Source of the DNA: a virus
UHGV virus genome: UHGV-0057547
Strand: one strand, 5' to 3'
DNA length: 64,000 bases
The notes under the pieces were generated by a model that worked only from the letters and a program-made list of their open reading frames with translations, was not told where the DNA came from and ran no database searches. Positions 85 to 43,379 of this stretch are shown here, piece after piece. Position 1 is the first letter of the stretch. Each line of letters starts with the position of its first letter. The translations under genes were made by a program, and so were the position numbers.

Positions 85-261
85 TTTGTTTTGCCTTTTG
101 CGAAGCAGTGGAAATTAGCTAAAAATGATGTTTTAGGGGGAGAAGAAGGAATAGAAGATTATGAAGATGTAGATAAAATATACAATGAACAAAATAAGAA
201 TAATACCGAAGTAGAAAATGAAGTAGAAGATGAAGTAGGTGAGGAAAACAATGACAAGTAG
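85..261 (+). CDS. 3' exon (C-terminal acidic tail) of an upstream intron-containing gene, partial
   Basis: Open frame from the presumed 3' splice site at 84/85 to TAG at 259-261. E/D-rich tail. Identity unknown; the position before TerL suggests small terminase or another packaging gene. Confidence 0.4.
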   Translation, partial: FVLPFAKQWKLAKNDVLGGEEGIEDYEDVDKIYNEQNKNNTEVENEVEDEVGEENNDK

Positions 262-401
262 TCCAAAAGAAAATGTTGAAAAAGAAGAAATACTTTCCGA
301 TGATGTCATGAAAAGTCCTCATAGAAAAAGAAGGAATTTATCCCAAAGAAAAAAAGATAGATTAAATGAAGGTATGAAAATATGGACTGCATTTTATAGG
401 T
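251..401 (+). CDS. terL: large terminase subunit, exon 1 (N-terminus; 3' boundary approximate)
   Basis: ATG 251 with SD GGTGAGG about 8 nt upstream. Basic N-terminus ...GMKIWTAFYR. The frame hits TAG at 410, just before the intron core (P element at 450), so the exon must end at or before about 409. Joining to 748 gives ...FYR-L-NIHRFALDFLGL... Confidence 0.45.
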
Positions 402-747
402 TAAATATTTAGCTTATTTTATTAGGTAACTAATAATCTAAACCCTTTGAATTGCTGGAAAGGACTTAGAGCCTATTGAACTACAACGTGACTAGAAATG
501 GTGAGCGTGAATGTTTAAAAATCAATAGGATTGTTTAATCAGCAGGTAAGATTCTAAATTGCTATAAACAATATGAATAAACTTCAACGACTAGAGTTTA
601 AACTCGTAGGCTACAAGTTATTGGTAGTCGAAGCGGAGGGCATCCTTTCATAGGATGAAGATATAGTCTGTTCTTATATGAAAATATAAGTAGTTCTTTA
701 TTTAATAAAGAACAGTATGTATGTAGCGAATACATATGAACATTTAG
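402..747 (+). mobile_element. group I intron (family A), ORF-less, TerL intron 1
   Basis: P AATTGCTGGAAA 450-461. Q AATCAGCAGG 537-546. R CTTCAACGACTAG 582-594. S AAGATATAGTCT 658-669. Terminal hairpin TATGTATGTAGCGAATACATAT then GAACATTTAG|. The 5' splice site is uncertain (about 400-425). Confidence 0.75.
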
Positions 748-863
748 TAAACATCCATAGATTCGCACTGGATTTTTTGGGACTTAATTTATATCCGTTC
801 CAAATTATATTGCTTTATATGATGAATATAATGTATAGCACTTGCCTAATATGTGCAAGGGGT
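748..863 (+). CDS. terL: large terminase subunit, exon 2 (Q-motif/Walker A region)
   Basis: Frame from 750 reads NIHRFALDFLGLNLYPFQIILLYMMNIMYSTCLICARG. LYPFQ resembles the TerL adenine-binding Q motif (L.PWQ). The exon ends ...AGGGGT, the family B insertion context. Confidence 0.6.
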
Positions 864-937
864 AAATAGATATGCTCCATTATATAGAAATATATAATTA
901 AAAATCAATCAAAATCGGTAAAAGTCTAAGTTTAATA

Positions 938-966
938 TTTACATTTTTTAGGAATATAAGTATAAT
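938..966 (+). promoter_or_regulatory. intron-internal sigma70-like promoter for the HNH ORF
   Basis: TTTACA 938-943, 17-nt spacer, TATAAT 961-966. SD AAAAGGGGTG then ATG 988. Confidence 0.5.
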
Positions 967-39996: not shown

Positions 39997-40019
39997 ATAA
40001 GTAAAGAGAGGTGGAATAT

Positions 40020-40913
40020 ATGGGTCAAAAATTGAATAGAAAAAAAATAGAAAAATATATAAATCAATATAATTATGAAGTTTTATATTGTAAACATGAT
40101 AAAAATAAATATAAATGGAAACTCATTTTAATGTGCCCTAATTTTCATATTTTCAAAATGGATTTTGATAAATTTCAAAATAATAGAAGATGCCCTTGTT
40201 GTAATGGTTCTAAGTATAATGAAGATTTTGTTAGAGAATATATGTTAAATAATGGAGATATACTTTTATCTCATTATCATAATGGAAATGAAAAATTAAA
40301 AGTAATGTGTAAATATGGTCATATTTTTTATCCAATATTTAATAATTACTATAATAAAAATTCAAGATGTCCATATTGTAATGGGAATATAACTATGGAG
40401 CATAAAAGTTTTATTAATAGATTAAATACAATTAACCCTAACATAGAAATATTGGGTGAATATAAAAATAGTCATACTAAAATTAAATGTAAGTGTAAAA
40501 TAGATGGGCATGAATGGGAGGCAAAGCCTACTAATCTATTAGGAAGTAAAAATGCAAAACCAACTGGATGTCCAAAGTGTTATAGACGAACTTATCGAGG
40601 TGAAACACATCCTTTATTTGACCATAGTAAAACAAAAGAAGATAGAGAAGATGATAGAAGTTATTTTGAATATAATGAATGGAGAACTAAATGTTTTGAG
40701 AGAGATAAATATACTTGTCAAGTTACCGGACAACAAGGTGGAAGATTAGTAGTACATCATTTATATTCTTATAATAAATATTATTGTTTAAGAACGACAT
40801 TGGAAAATGGTATAACAATATCAGAAGAAATACATAAAAAATTCCATTCTATTTATGGAAATGGAAATAATACATTCGAACAATGGGAAGAATTTATTAA
40901 AAGTTTAAAATAA
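40020..40913 (+). CDS. intron-encoded homing endonuclease: Zn-ribbon modules + C-terminal HNH domain
   Basis: N-terminal modules as in the Vsr-type paralogs (CPNFH...RCPCC, CKYGH...RCPYC, CPKC). The C-terminus carries a canonical HNH block: CQVTG...LVVHHLYSYNKYY...NGITISEEIHKKFH. Confidence 0.6.
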   Translation: MGQKLNRKKIEKYINQYNYEVLYCKHDKNKYKWKLILMCPNFHIFKMDFDKFQNNRRCPCCNGSKYNEDFVREYMLNNGDILLSHYHNGNEKLKVMCKYGHIFYPIFNNYYNKNSRCPYCNGNITMEHKSFINRLNTINPNIEILGEYKNSHTKIKCKCKIDGHEWEAKPTNLLGSKNAKPTGCPKCYRRTYRGETHPLFDHSKTKEDREDDRSYFEYNEWRTKCFERDKYTCQVTGQQGGRLVVHHLYSYNKYYCLRTTLENGITISEEIHKKFHSIYGNGNNTFEQWEEFIKSLK

Positions 40914-41131
40914 TTTAACATGAATAAACTTCAACGACTATCCCTTGGATTTACTAATTTAGTAAATCAATAGGAGTACGGCTCAAGTGATTGGAGTGGG
41001 TGAAATCCCCTTAAATGGAAAAGGTCTACTCCTACAATTGTAGGATGAAGAAATAGTCTTGACACGTTTTGAAAGAAAGTGCTTAGAATTAACTAAGGTT
41101 TATAAAATGCGATTATAAATAAAATTTTTCG

Positions 41132-41476
41132 TAAAGAAGCTTATCAAAGATGGAGAGACGATGTTGACTATAAAGATGATTATAACAAACAATTAAAAAC
41201 TGTTGAAGATTTACAAAAGAAAATAGAAATAGCGAAACGTGATGATAGTTTAACTGGACAAAAACGTTTAGCAGATTTGATGAAAGAATTAAAAGAAGAA
41301 CAAGAAAATCTTGAAGATATGGTTCAAGACAAAATTAACAGTGACGTGAATAATATGTTTGATGACCAAATAGACAAAATAGAAGAAAATTCTGATGAAG
41401 AAGTTAAGAATTTGGAAAAAACATGGTCAGAAAGCAAAATAGCTGAAATGGTTAAACAAGCACTTGATACTGGAGT
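41132..41476 (+). CDS. tape measure protein, exon 6
   Basis: The frame opens at 41133. Junction KFSL-V-KEAYQRWRDD... Ends CTGGAGT with P1-like hairpin GGAGTAAATTAGCTCC. Confidence 0.5.
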
Positions 41477-42978
41477 AAATTAGCTCCTTTTACTAAGTAA
41501 TTAGTATTAAAACTCATTGAATTGCTGGAACTTCCTAAAGCTAACTAAACTACAATATGGCTAGAAATGGCGAATATGAATGTGGCGAAAGCAGAAAAAA
41601 TTAGTTAGATATTCATATGGTTAAATCCTAAGTGAATATAAATGGATAATCAGCAGGTAAGTGCCTAAATTTATTTTATAAAATAATTGACTTTTAATAA
41701 GATAAAACGTATAATATAAGTAAAGAAAGGGGTTGAGATGATGAAAAAACATGATTATAAATTTATTAAAGAATATGTTGAAAGTTTTGGATATAAATTA
41801 TTATCAACAGAATATAAAAATGCTAATACTAAATTAAAAATAGAATGTCAAGAAGGACATATGTTTGAAAGAACATTTAGTAAGTTTAAACAAACTCAAA
41901 ATTGTCCATATTGCACTAATACTAGAAAATGGAATATTTTAGAAATAAAAGAGTATTTAAAAAACATAGGTTATACATTATTAAGTACAGAGTATAAAAA
42001 TAATCAAACCAAATTAGATATGATTTGTTCAGAGGGACATAAAATACAAATGACTTTAGGAAATATCCAACAAGGTAAAAGATGTCATATATGTTCAAGA
42101 AAAACAGCTTCAGAAAAAAGAAAACATGATTATGAATTCGTTAAGCAATATATTGAAAATGAAGGTTATAAATTATTATCCAAAACATATATAAATCAAG
42201 ATGAAAAATTAAAAATAAGATGTTCGAAAGGTCATATATTTTTAATGAGTTTTTGTAAATTTAAACAAGGTCAAAGATGTCCTCAATGTTGTAAAAATAA
42301 AAAAATGTCTCATAAAGAATTTTTAGAAAAATTCTATAATCAAAATTACAATACTGAAAATATAGAAATATTGAGTGAATATATAAATGCTAAGACGAAA
42401 ATAAAATGTAAATGTCTAAAAGACGGTTGTATTTGGTATGTTATACCTAATAGTTTACTAAACGGAACTGGTTGTCCTCAATGTAACGAATCTAAAGGAG
42501 AAAAAAGAGTTGCTAAATATTTAGATAGTAGAAATATAGAATATGAAAGACAATATAAATTTAATGATTGTAAAAGTAACAAAGAGTTACCTTTTGATTT
42601 TTATATACATAGTTTAAATATAGCTATAGAATATGATGGTGGACAACATTATATGATAGTAAACCATTTTGGAGGACTTAATGGATTTATAACTACTAAA
42701 ATACATGACACTATAAAAACACAATATTGCAAAAATAACAATATTCGTTTAATAAGAATACCATATTGGGATTTTGATAATATAGAAAATATACTAAGTC
42801 AATTATTAAATATAAATATGAATAAATAAGGCAAAACTTCAACGACTATATATACTAGTAGTCTAGTTAGTGGTGAGCATCCTTATGGGATGATGATATA
42901 GTCTACTCTCATGTGAAAGCATGAGCAGTTCATAAGAGAACGGTATAAGGTTTAACGAACTTTATATGAATATTAAGG
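41477..42978 (+). mobile_element. group I intron (family A) with homing endonuclease gene; TMP intron 6
   Basis: P 41520-41531. Q 41648-41657. Promoter TTGACT 41687-41692, 17-nt spacer, TATAAT 41710-41715. ORF 41738-42829. R 42837-42849. S about 42891-42903. Terminal hairpin TATAAGGTTTAACGAACTTTATA then GAATATTAAGG| at 42977-42978. Confidence 0.75.
41738..42829 (+). CDS. intron-encoded homing endonuclease (4 Zn-ribbon modules + Vsr-like nuclease)
   Basis: C-terminal block ELPFDFYIHSLNIAIEYDGGQHYM...RLIRIPYWDFDNIENILSQLL. Confidence 0.6.
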   Translation: MMKKHDYKFIKEYVESFGYKLLSTEYKNANTKLKIECQEGHMFERTFSKFKQTQNCPYCTNTRKWNILEIKEYLKNIGYTLLSTEYKNNQTKLDMICSEGHKIQMTLGNIQQGKRCHICSRKTASEKRKHDYEFVKQYIENEGYKLLSKTYINQDEKLKIRCSKGHIFLMSFCKFKQGQRCPQCCKNKKMSHKEFLEKFYNQNYNTENIEILSEYINAKTKIKCKCLKDGCIWYVIPNSLLNGTGCPQCNESKGEKRVAKYLDSRNIEYERQYKFNDCKSNKELPFDFYIHSLNIAIEYDGGQHYMIVNHFGGLNGFITTKIHDTIKTQYCKNNNIRLIRIPYWDFDNIENILSQLLNINMNK

Positions 42979-43379
42979 TGTTTACAGATATTGATGGAAA
43001 TATCAAAACTCTTCAAACAGCATTAATGGATTTTGCTAATACAAGTTCTGATTATTTTGGAGTTATGGGTGATTCATTAAAGAAAGAATTGTTAAATAAT
43101 CTTAATGTAGCATTAGAGACTATGAAAGAACTTCAAAAAATGTCAGATAATTATACTGCTCCTAATATAGATTATAGCAATACAGTACTTCCAAAAGATA
43201 GTGGTATTAATACTTCTCCACAAGTTTCTAGTAATGTTGAAACTAATAATATTACAATTGGAGATACTAATATTACAATTCAAGGTGGTGCAGATGATGT
43301 TACTTTAGGAAAAGTAGATGAAATGTTAAAAGATTACAAAGCAAGCATTTGTAAGGAAATTGTTAAAAATATGAAATAA
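42979..43379 (+). CDS. tape measure protein, exon 7 (C-terminus)
   Basis: Continues the frame from 42966 (junction DTG-V-FTDIDGNIK...) and ends at TAA 43377-43379. Confidence 0.5.

Follow-up and report, generated by a model that had tools for sequence, protein, structure and literature searches.

Two families of putative mobile group I introns interrupt six genes in the head-tail module of an SPbeta-like phage

Six interrupted genes in one module

The stretch of virus genome UHGV-0057547 analyzed here (64,000 nt, hereafter the window) has a G+C content of 25-30% and carries all of its genes on the plus strand. Between its first position and 43.4 kb the coding sequence is interrupted by stretches of 0.34-1.5 kb that derive from a few repeat families, and in which a 5′ core, a 3′ core and a cassette combining a promoter with a ribosome-binding site (RBS) recur as direct repeats throughout 1-43 kb. 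As detailed below, the window is very probably the head-tail module of a large (~170-210 kb) SPbeta-like phage into which mobile group I introns of two families have spread. In family A, a 5′ block (…UUGAAUUGCUGGAAA…GGUUAAAUCCUAAG…AAUCAGCAGGUAAG), a cassette in which a sigma-70-like promoter and a Shine-Dalgarno sequence (TTGACT-17 nt-TATAAT…GGAGGTG) precede an open reading frame (ORF) of 235-374 codons, and a 3′ block (…UUCAACGACUAG…GAUAUAGUCU…) can be distinguished, while family B is recognized by a different signature (…AAAAUCGGU…AUACCGAG…GUAGAGCAUAGAG…GAAAAUAUAUGCC…). A motif search for the family-A core returned 13 ordered pairs, on the plus strand only, and two half-profiles in the form of hidden Markov models (HMMs) gave exactly 13 + 13 matches, again all on the plus strand and with none past 43 kb. 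The family-B HMM identified five copies with the same strand and the same limit.

Element boundaries were set from the empty sites in close relatives, from the reading frames and from the requirement that the last base be G, and the TerL exon pieces were located by their colinear, contiguous mapping onto the YonF terminase of SPbeta-like Bacillus phages. Joining the exons in silico yields six single ORFs with zero internal stops, which encode the terminase large subunit TerL (599 amino acids), a portal-like protein (487), a YonD-like protein (592), a capsid protein (338), a tail protein (185) and the tape measure protein (TMP, 4329). The 18 elements that are removed (Table 1) sum to 18,038 nt, or 42% of positions 251-43379. 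An earlier first-pass annotation of the window had claimed 13 family-A and five family-B copies in this interval, about 18 kb of intron, and a distribution of seven elements in TerL, one each in the portal, protease/scaffold and capsid genes, two in the tail gene and six in TMP; each of these figures was reproduced exactly or, for the total length, closely. Its further claim, that the flanking exons make complete proteins only when joined, agrees with the colinearity to SPbeta YonF, with the absence of internal stops and with gap-free alignments to intact homologues.

These alignments, which the first-pass annotation had put forward as a check for TerL, portal, capsid and TMP, covered each of the joined products. 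Spliced TerL matches the terminase large subunit family phrog_2 and aligns gap-free across its seven junctions with uninterrupted homologues of 594-603 amino acids (~70% identity), and all of its junctions adjoin invariant residues, for example those of the Walker A motif (CARG^LSKS; a caret marks a junction throughout). The joined portal protein is identical at 486 of 487 positions, with no gaps, to the product of an intact gene in one relative (L037), the joined YonD-like protein at 580 of 586 positions to that of a second (L033), whose intact gene has the Pfam domain YonD_N, and the joined capsid protein at all 335 of 335 to that of a third (L034), whose intact gene has Pfam YonB. In the more distant relative L009, an uninterrupted homologue aligns with the spliced tail protein gap-free through both junctions, and the C-terminal part of spliced TMP likewise aligns across its junctions to L009.

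Gene identities are firm for TerL (phrog_2) and TMP (PhageMin_Tail), as the first-pass annotation had them. Its names for the portal, prohead protease-scaffold and major tail genes are better regarded as putative: they follow from synteny with SPbeta, from the YonD_N and YonB labels in relatives and from weak profile matches, and the designation as major tail protein is suggested by the position of the gene upstream of TMP.

On the N-terminal, middle and C-terminal parts of TerL the terminase family is outmatched by phrog_15503, phrog_26582 and phrog_24618, all labelled 'unknown function'. These three families were probably built from intron-split fragments of other phages.

At the left edge of the window, the partial element that had been noted at 1-84 in an upstream gene proved to be the 3′ end of a further, 14th A-type intron within a YonG-like gene. 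In sequence it hardly differs from the corresponding end of A9, which lies at 22.6-23.0 kb. A complete 14th A element with a homing-endonuclease ORF splits the YonG-like gene in relative L005 (~3912-5328), and the Pfam domain YonG_N is found on the split or intact upstream gene in relatives.

Table 1 Interrupted genes, predicted introns and cassettes in the window. Handles L002 to L037 denote relatives; a caret marks the junction at an empty site.
Feature	Coordinates	Strand	Structure and content	State in relatives
14th family-A intron, 3′ end	1..84	+	interrupts YonG-like gene upstream of TerL; last exon 85-258	
TerL gene	251..9428	+	exons 251-401, 748-863, 2033-2134, 3485-3614, 5000-5028, 6276-6324, 7865-7999, 8341-9428; element order A1, B1, A2, A3, B2, A4, B3	
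Intron A1	402..747	+	346 nt, no ORF	empty site in L003
Intron B1	864..2032	+	HNH-type ORF 988-1773 (phrog_953); interrupts Walker A CARG^LSKS	empty in L003, L004
Intron A2	2135..3484	+	zinc-finger/Vsr-like endonuclease ORF 2392-3327 (phrog_559)	empty in L004; ORF-less in L005
Intron A3	3615..4999	+	endonuclease ORF 3878-4834 (phrog_559)	empty in L005
Intron B2	5029..6275	+	LAGLIDADG ORF 5087-5956 near 5′ end (LAGLIDADG_3, phrog_4645)	empty in L005
Intron A4	6325..7864	+	endonuclease ORF 6581-7705 (phrog_559)	empty in L003, L004: CAAGGAG^GTTTCGAT
Intron B3	8000..8340	+	341 nt, no ORF; P1 UGCAU/GUGCA	empty in L003
Portal-like gene	9466..12241	+	exons 9466-10363, 11676-12241; position as SPbeta YonE	
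Intron A5	10364..11675	+	endonuclease ORF 10713-11516 (phrog_559)	empty in L002, L004, L037 (10363 joined to 11676)
YonD-like (putative protease/scaffold) gene	12524..14707	+	exons 12524-13097, 13503-14707; weak tblastn match to SPbeta YonD	
Intron A6	13098..13502	+	405 nt, no ORF	empty in L033, GGAG^CTATGG; ORF-containing version in L003
Capsid (YonB-like) gene	15288..17638	+	exons 15288-15736, 17071-17638; phrog_4088; weak Phage_capsid match	
Intron A7	15737..17070	+	endonuclease ORF 15986-16912 (phrog_559)	empty in L004, L006, L034 (15736 joined to 17071)
Putative major tail gene	21108..23381	+	exons 21108-21252, 22597-22648, 23027-23381; phrog_2729 virion structural protein	
Intron A8	21253..22596	+	endonuclease ORF 21491-22417 (phrog_559)	
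Intron A9	22649..23026	+	378 nt, no ORF; most divergent A copy; P4 covaries	
TMP gene	24503..43379	+	exons 24503-29631, 30696-30707, 31089-31473, 32639-32746, 33128-39738, 41132-41475, 42979-43379; PhageMin_Tail; element order B4, A10, B5, A11, A12, A13	
Intron B4	29632..30695	+	phrog_559 ORF 29762-30469	gone with A10 in L010; ORF-less in L011, L012
Intron A10	30708..31088	+	381 nt, no ORF	gone with B4 in L010
Intron B5	31474..32638	+	LAGLIDADG_3 ORF 31569-32351	empty in L008
Intron A11	32747..33127	+	381 nt, no ORF; sole A copy beginning with A, not U	empty in L008, L010, L011, L012
Intron A12	39739..41131	+	endonuclease ORF 40011-40913 (phrog_559, HNH)	empty in L008, L010, L011
Intron A13	41476..42978	+	zinc-finger endonuclease ORF 41738-42829; CapR/DUF4379 repeats (Pfam)	ORF-less in L008, L011
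Promoter/RBS cassettes (motif match)	2304-2387, 3792-3875, 6495-6578, 15944-15996, 21419-21502, 39933-40015, 41652-41734			

Family A has a covarying group I core

The RNA structure of family A was analyzed on an alignment of the 13 copies from which the nested ORFs had been removed. RNAalifold predicts P2, a long-range P3 around the P4-P6 domain, P8 beside P3′ and hairpins at the 3′ end, and 45 of the 63 pairs are compensatory. Once the P7 pseudoknot and P9 are included, 94.0% of the alignment cells are paired, compared with 33-40% when the partners are slid by 1-3 columns; 50 of the 74 pairs have changed in both partners, and the observed values were not attained in any of 500 shuffles. P7 pairs GACUA with UAGUC, and in A3 a double compensatory change has converted it to GAACA/UGUUC.

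Rfam scans of single ORF-less copies matched the Intron_gpI model (RF00028, gathering score 50). A1, searched alone in a stretch of 391 nt, matched it end to end at 92.8 bits (E 9.5e-25), A6 alone reached 46.9 bits (E 6e-11), and A9 gave a weak match of 24.7 bits. With the boundaries set by empty sites and reading frames, the terminal G (omega G) is present in 13 of 13 copies, where it is the first or second of adjacent Gs after a G-free tail of ~10 nt. Family A furthermore has a P7/J8-7 signature, CAACGACUA … GAUAUAGUC, together with extra helices between P7 and P3′, a combination that we take, from the Twort ribozyme, to be that of subgroup IA2. Over half of viral group I introns belong to this subgroup (PMC11835236). 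DNA resembling the family-A core occurs in ~500 catalogued phage records and DNA resembling the family-B core in ~80, most of it unannotated.

Family B has a second, group I-like architecture

An alignment of seven family-B copies, five from the window and two from relatives, has the helix order P3 - P4/P6 - P7 - extra helices - P3′ - P8 - P7′. Within this model 95.9% of the cells are paired, compared with 37-45% after sliding, and 26 of the 56 pairs have changes in both partners. For P3 there are five different sequences, each of them complementary, and all seven of its pairs covary, as do P6 and P8; P7 (GCAUA/UAUGC) and P4 are invariant across the seven copies and thus fit the model while offering no covariation. 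The P3 of B2 reads GAGAAC/GUUCUC, and its 5′ strand is overlapped by the stop codon of the nested ORF.

The family-B splice sites are canonical: the exon ends in U(-1) and the element in G in all five copies as well as in an extra copy found in L003 and L004, and at exon -1 the intron-less alleles have a synonymous base other than U. A U(-1).G pair in P1 is visible in B1, B3 and B4, while B5 has a candidate guide sequence only, located within its ORF. We class family B with the group I introns, in an IA-like subgroup other than that of family A.

Weighing the group I interpretation

Several results weigh against the conclusion that both families are self-splicing group I introns. Splicing is here predicted from DNA sequence. 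The whole-window Rfam scan for RF00028 that the first-pass annotation had proposed gave no matches, either at the gathering score or at E<=10, and a scan of 2.8 kb missed A10 and A11; because the single-copy scans do match, we attribute the negative scans of long stretches to false negatives of the speed filter on AT-rich DNA, so that this check works on short stretches only. For family B there was no Rfam match at E<=10, neither on 381 nt with B3 alone nor on 2.8 kb with the 3′ part of B4 and B5, and inspection of B2 revealed no convincing guide sequence. Finally, the boundaries that restore the genes in family A define the intron as U…G and place 12 of the 13 5′ junctions one nucleotide upstream of the conserved U; the same reasoning, applied to the A-like lysin intron of Staphylococcus phage JDF86, gives a canonical junction, with the conserved spacing of the CHAP domain kept.

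Family B could in principle be another kind of self-excising or host-processed element with a similar topology. Its failure to match Rfam even at E<=10 on 381 nt, the invariance of P7 and P4 among the seven copies and the unclear guide sequence of B2 would all suit such an element. We nevertheless consider this unlikely, since the helix order is group I-like with covariation in P3, P6 and P8, P1 contains U(-1).G in B1, B3 and B4, every copy has the terminal G, and the nested endonucleases are of the same kinds as those of family A, including phrog_559 in B4.

For family A the difficulty lies at the 5′ splice site. The last exon nucleotide of group I introns is near-universally a U that forms a wobble pair with a G of the guide sequence in P1. 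With the gene-restoring boundaries, this canonical U is found at exon -1 only in A1; the position is occupied by G in ten copies, by A in A2 and by C in A12. In A2-A13 the guide sequence instead pairs with a U at intron +1, through G in nine copies and through A in two. Nine copies accordingly begin with UAA or UGA, and 13 of 13 end in G. Exact empty sites support the boundaries of A2-A7, A11 and A12, with those of A2, A3, A4 and A6 fitting the U…G model exactly, and the reading frames and the invariant residues at the junctions agree. The junction bases are fixed in all intron-bearing relatives, so that these are uninformative on the boundaries, and the Rfam alignment of P1 in A6 is too loose to locate the splice site.

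Other placements of the family-A boundaries were rejected. Canonical boundaries would leave one additional nucleotide in the mRNA and bring in stop codons at A2, A3, A5, A6, A7, A8, A9, A11 and A12. Keeping the U in the exon and ending the intron one base past the G would, relative to the empty sites of A2, A3, A4 and A6, replace Asn by Tyr, Ala by Val, Gly by Val and Ala by Val, and one of these Ala to Val changes hits a column in which Ala is invariant in all TerL homologues; only A7 fits this placement better, and the difference there is synonymous. An intron starting one base earlier and ending before the G is ruled out by A1 and A12. Complementarity of the exon to the P5 region was judged coincidental, as A1 and A10 share this segment but differ in their exons.

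That the family-A elements are group I introns splicing at canonical sites, with the genes left frameshifted and the module decaying or defective, is very unlikely. Such a reading can draw on the U paired to the guide G, which is kept in 9 of the 13 copies as at a normal 5′ splice site, and on the canonical intron in the lysin gene of the related Staphylococcus phage; decay, however, would not repeat the same offset of exactly +1 nt, with stops in nine A copies, and exon identity to intact genes is 97-100%. In many independent metagenomes, moreover, the same intron-bearing alleles recur with their flanking frames intact.

The gene-restoring boundaries would instead make family A an IA2-type lineage with a 5′ splice site shifted by one nucleotide, after a Watson-Crick-paired G, A or C, a proposal for and against which we find the case evenly balanced. 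The canonical outcome of the JDF86 control suggests that the shift belongs to the copies of this clade and not to the method. Either the ribozyme would cleave one position 5′ of the wobble pair, or another non-canonical event would take place. A search of the accessible literature gave nothing specific on a precedent for a shifted 5′ junction or for exceptions to the U(-1) rule.

A family-A-like 3′ core is also present in the portal gene of Staphylococcus phage Romulus (L007, JX846613 8301-11928), where it is combined with an IS605 OrfB transposase gene in an element that interrupts the portal gene. This element is an IStron-like composite and is uninformative on splice sites; the portal gene of Romulus and Remus is annotated only as 'similar to portal protein'.

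Nested endonucleases and distribution among relatives

Homing-endonuclease genes are carried by 12 of the 18 elements. Members of phrog_559, which combine repeated treble-clef zinc fingers with a Vsr/DUF559-like C-terminus, are encoded in A2, A3, A4, A5, A7, A8, A12 and B4, and the A13 ORF has zinc-finger repeats of the phrog_559 type with a weak match to Pfam DUF559. LAGLIDADG endonucleases (phrog_4645) are found in B2 and B5 and a member of the HNH family (phrog_953) in B1. The ORFs occupy L6-like loops in family A, B1 and B4, while in B2 and B5 they lie close to the 5′ end and their stop codon overlaps P3. As phrog_559 occurs in both ribozyme families and LAGLIDADG genes elsewhere, the endonuclease genes appear to have moved between ribozyme scaffolds. 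A study of Bastillevirinae has likewise described phrog_559 inside TerL introns (PMC11878797).

Within the introns, the endonuclease ORFs are preceded by TTGACT or TTTACT, a spacer of 17 nt, TATAAT and a GGAGGTG RBS, which suggests that endonuclease transcription does not depend on that of the host gene.

Close relatives were collected from IMG/VR and from ENA/JGI assemblies, where they lie on contigs of 172-210 kb. Fourteen elements are each absent, or present without their ORF, in at least one close relative, and the empty sites are exact and in frame. The subsets differ: L003 is without A1, B1 and B3, while L005 is without A3 and B2 and has an ORF-less A2, and the A11 site is empty in all four relatives that span TMP. 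Conversely, relatives carry extra insertions at window positions ~31.2 kb (31210-31245), 41258 and 43073, and since they thus use sites that are empty in the window, the site set of the clade exceeds 18. Among the relatives, some introns occur both with and without their ORF, which is classic endonuclease gain and loss. Known endonuclease families and presence/absence at identical sites, as expected of homing-type elements, are found together. Relatives hold 5-12 introns within 21 kb around TerL, and more distant members of this phage group none or 1-2.

An ORF-less family-B intron is inserted within the Walker B codons of TerL (VLVV^DEYRM) at 4790-5113 of L003 and at the matching site of L004 (window ~6297); this site is empty in the window.

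Two of the exons are very short. A TerL exon of 29 nt (5000-5028) lies between A3 and B2 and is confirmed by an intron-less allele in L005, and a TMP micro-exon of 12 nt (30696-30707, AAATTACGCTGG) separates B4 (family B) from A10 (family A) and is confirmed by an intron-less allele in L010. Exon skipping is known from Twort and SIOphi, and both exons are candidates for it.

Many ENA and JGI metagenome assemblies contain members of the clade. A megablast search against catalogued phages found no close relative, with matches of only 50-110 nt confined to intron cores, and a search of genome contigs with the C-terminal TerL exon found no prophage relative and hence gave no host assignment.

Three further explanations were considered. 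Without any RNA splicing, the exons might encode separate polypeptides, or their products might be ligated by inteins or split inteins; LAGLIDADG_3 domains are indeed also typical of intein endonucleases, but this is hardly credible for elements that have stop codons in all frames, are mostly out of phase, show RNA-level covariation in their non-coding parts and lack a Hint/intein Pfam domain in their ORFs, and for exons of 12 and 29 nt that are too short for separate proteins or internal exons that lack start codons and ribosome-binding sites. Repeats with 60-98% mutual identity are able to confuse assemblers, yet artefacts or chimeras of one metagenome assembly are just as improbable, given base-exact junctions and at least 12 JGI and ENA contigs, assembled independently, that share this architecture but differ in their subsets of elements. 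Group II introns were rejected, because the elements end in U...G or A...G and not in GUGYG...AY, the nested ORFs have no reverse transcriptase domain, and the whole-window Rfam scans gave no group II match.

The interpretation that we favor is therefore one of two mobile group I intron families. The elements would be transcribed within their host genes as part of a late operon, and their RNA would fold into a group I core consisting of P1-P2, the P3/P7 pseudoknot, the P4-P6 domain, P8 and P9. We infer that the element is then excised from the pre-mRNA by RNA self-splicing, restoring the reading frame. The 12 elements with a promoter-like sequence, an RBS and an endonuclease gene of their own, situated in a peripheral loop or near the 5′ end, would produce endonucleases that are presumably active and that cut intron-less alleles during co-infection, whereupon the introns would be copied in one by one. 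Independent copying of this kind would leave related phages with different subsets. The claim of the first-pass annotation that elements resembling self-splicing introns split six essential genes is thus upheld by covariation, by the Rfam matches of family A, by the nested endonucleases, by presence/absence among relatives and by in-silico splicing.

Comparison with known intron-bearing systems

Family A has the same core as the IA2 introns of T4 td and nrdB, of Twort orf142 and nrdE, of the lysin and polymerase genes of Staphylococcus Kayvirus and of the polymerase genes of the Bacillus phages SPO1 and Bastille. It shares with these IA2-type phage introns the extra helices between P7 and P3′, the endonuclease ORF in a peripheral loop and the terminal G; unlike them, it is present in 13 copies in one module, with the inferred 5′ junction one nucleotide upstream in 12 of the 13. 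Many group I introns with endonucleases in one conserved gene are also known from fungal mitochondrial cox1, where LAGLIDADG and other endonucleases are nested and strains are polymorphic for intron presence. The cox1-type case differs in that it concerns an organelle, other ribozyme subgroups and dependence on maturases, whereas a phage in its lytic cycle would have to splice all introns within minutes.

Among phages, group I introns with homing endonucleases are known in terminase, TMP, tail-tube, polymerase and reductase genes (PMC3984707, PMC2504315, PMC11878797). In prophages of the Bacillus cereus group the same classes of host gene (TMP, terminase, tail tube) are interrupted by ribozymes of the IA1/IA2 type, related introns are likewise fitted to their sites via P1, and some copies are also endonuclease-less; these prophages, however, have at most three TMP sites and single introns elsewhere, compared with six in TMP and seven in TerL here (PMC2504315). 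For Bastillevirinae, up to three introns per gene have been reported, along with exon skipping and with two introns separated by a small internal exon (PMC11878797). Jug phages average 18.5 group I introns per genome of 360-400 kb, mostly ORF-less and of ~206 nt, their terL is in 2-3 pieces, and splicing of about half of the introns has been confirmed by metatranscriptomics; in crAss-like phages, too, genes are split by multiple self-splicing introns (PMC12880540).

Jug, crAss-like and Bastillevirinae phages and Twort resemble the present case in that many group I introns and homing endonucleases fragment essential genes, including terL. Relative to Jug and Bastillevirinae, the difference is one of density, with 18 introns accounting for 42% of a 43-kb module and seven of them in one coding sequence of 1.8 kb. 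The kind of element is therefore already known, while the density per gene and per kb exceeds every figure that we found, the earlier maximum per gene being three. Also beyond the reports found are the total of 18 introns in 43 kb, a 12-nt exon between ribozymes of different families and the shifted 5′ junction of family A. The first-pass annotation had called the density far outside the usual range; this stands for the load per gene and per kb, but its baseline of one to a few introns per phage is out of date in view of the crAss-like phages and of the Jug phages with their average of 18.5.

If this interpretation is correct, one infection cycle would need 18 correct splicing events, or 19 with the upstream gene, seven of them in TerL, and one event would have to span a 12-nt exon flanked by two different ribozymes. 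The module would then offer a natural system in which to study the limit of selfish-intron load, the order and fidelity of multiple splicing and the use of splicing as a timer of late genes. A displaced family-A junction, if true, would mean that the 5′-exon U.G rule is not obligatory in nature and that the choice of targets is relaxed, which could have let a single family colonize 13 positions within the module. If RNA data confirmed it, group I catalysis would have a natural exception to one of its most conserved rules, with a bearing on the design of trans-splicing and circular-RNA ribozymes. There are also consequences for annotation, and especially for automated intron censuses: Rfam with its default filter misses all copies and gene callers yield fragments. 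As standard pipelines fail here, the intron load of AT-rich gut phages is probably underestimated.

Other features of the tape measure gene and the downstream region

Within the large TMP exon, positions 37665-38019 consist of a tandem repeat with a period of 18 nt, whose product is rich in Lys, Ser and Thr (…KKKSTSKKKSSSKKK…).

Between TMP and the next gene lies a free-standing HNH endonuclease gene (43457-44164, 235 amino acids, weak HNH/HNH_4 matches). It is precisely missing in L008, and with its insertion the ATGGCAA at the start of the downstream gene has been duplicated, as if a homing endonuclease without an intron had entered where a gene begins.

Further downstream, long diverged direct repeats extend over 52843-59170 within the ORFs 52602-55178 and 55181-61543. 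The repeat units measure ~250 nt at 53132-54146, with 269-nt copies at 52843, 56961 and 58902, and they look like repeated domains of tail-fibre-like proteins.

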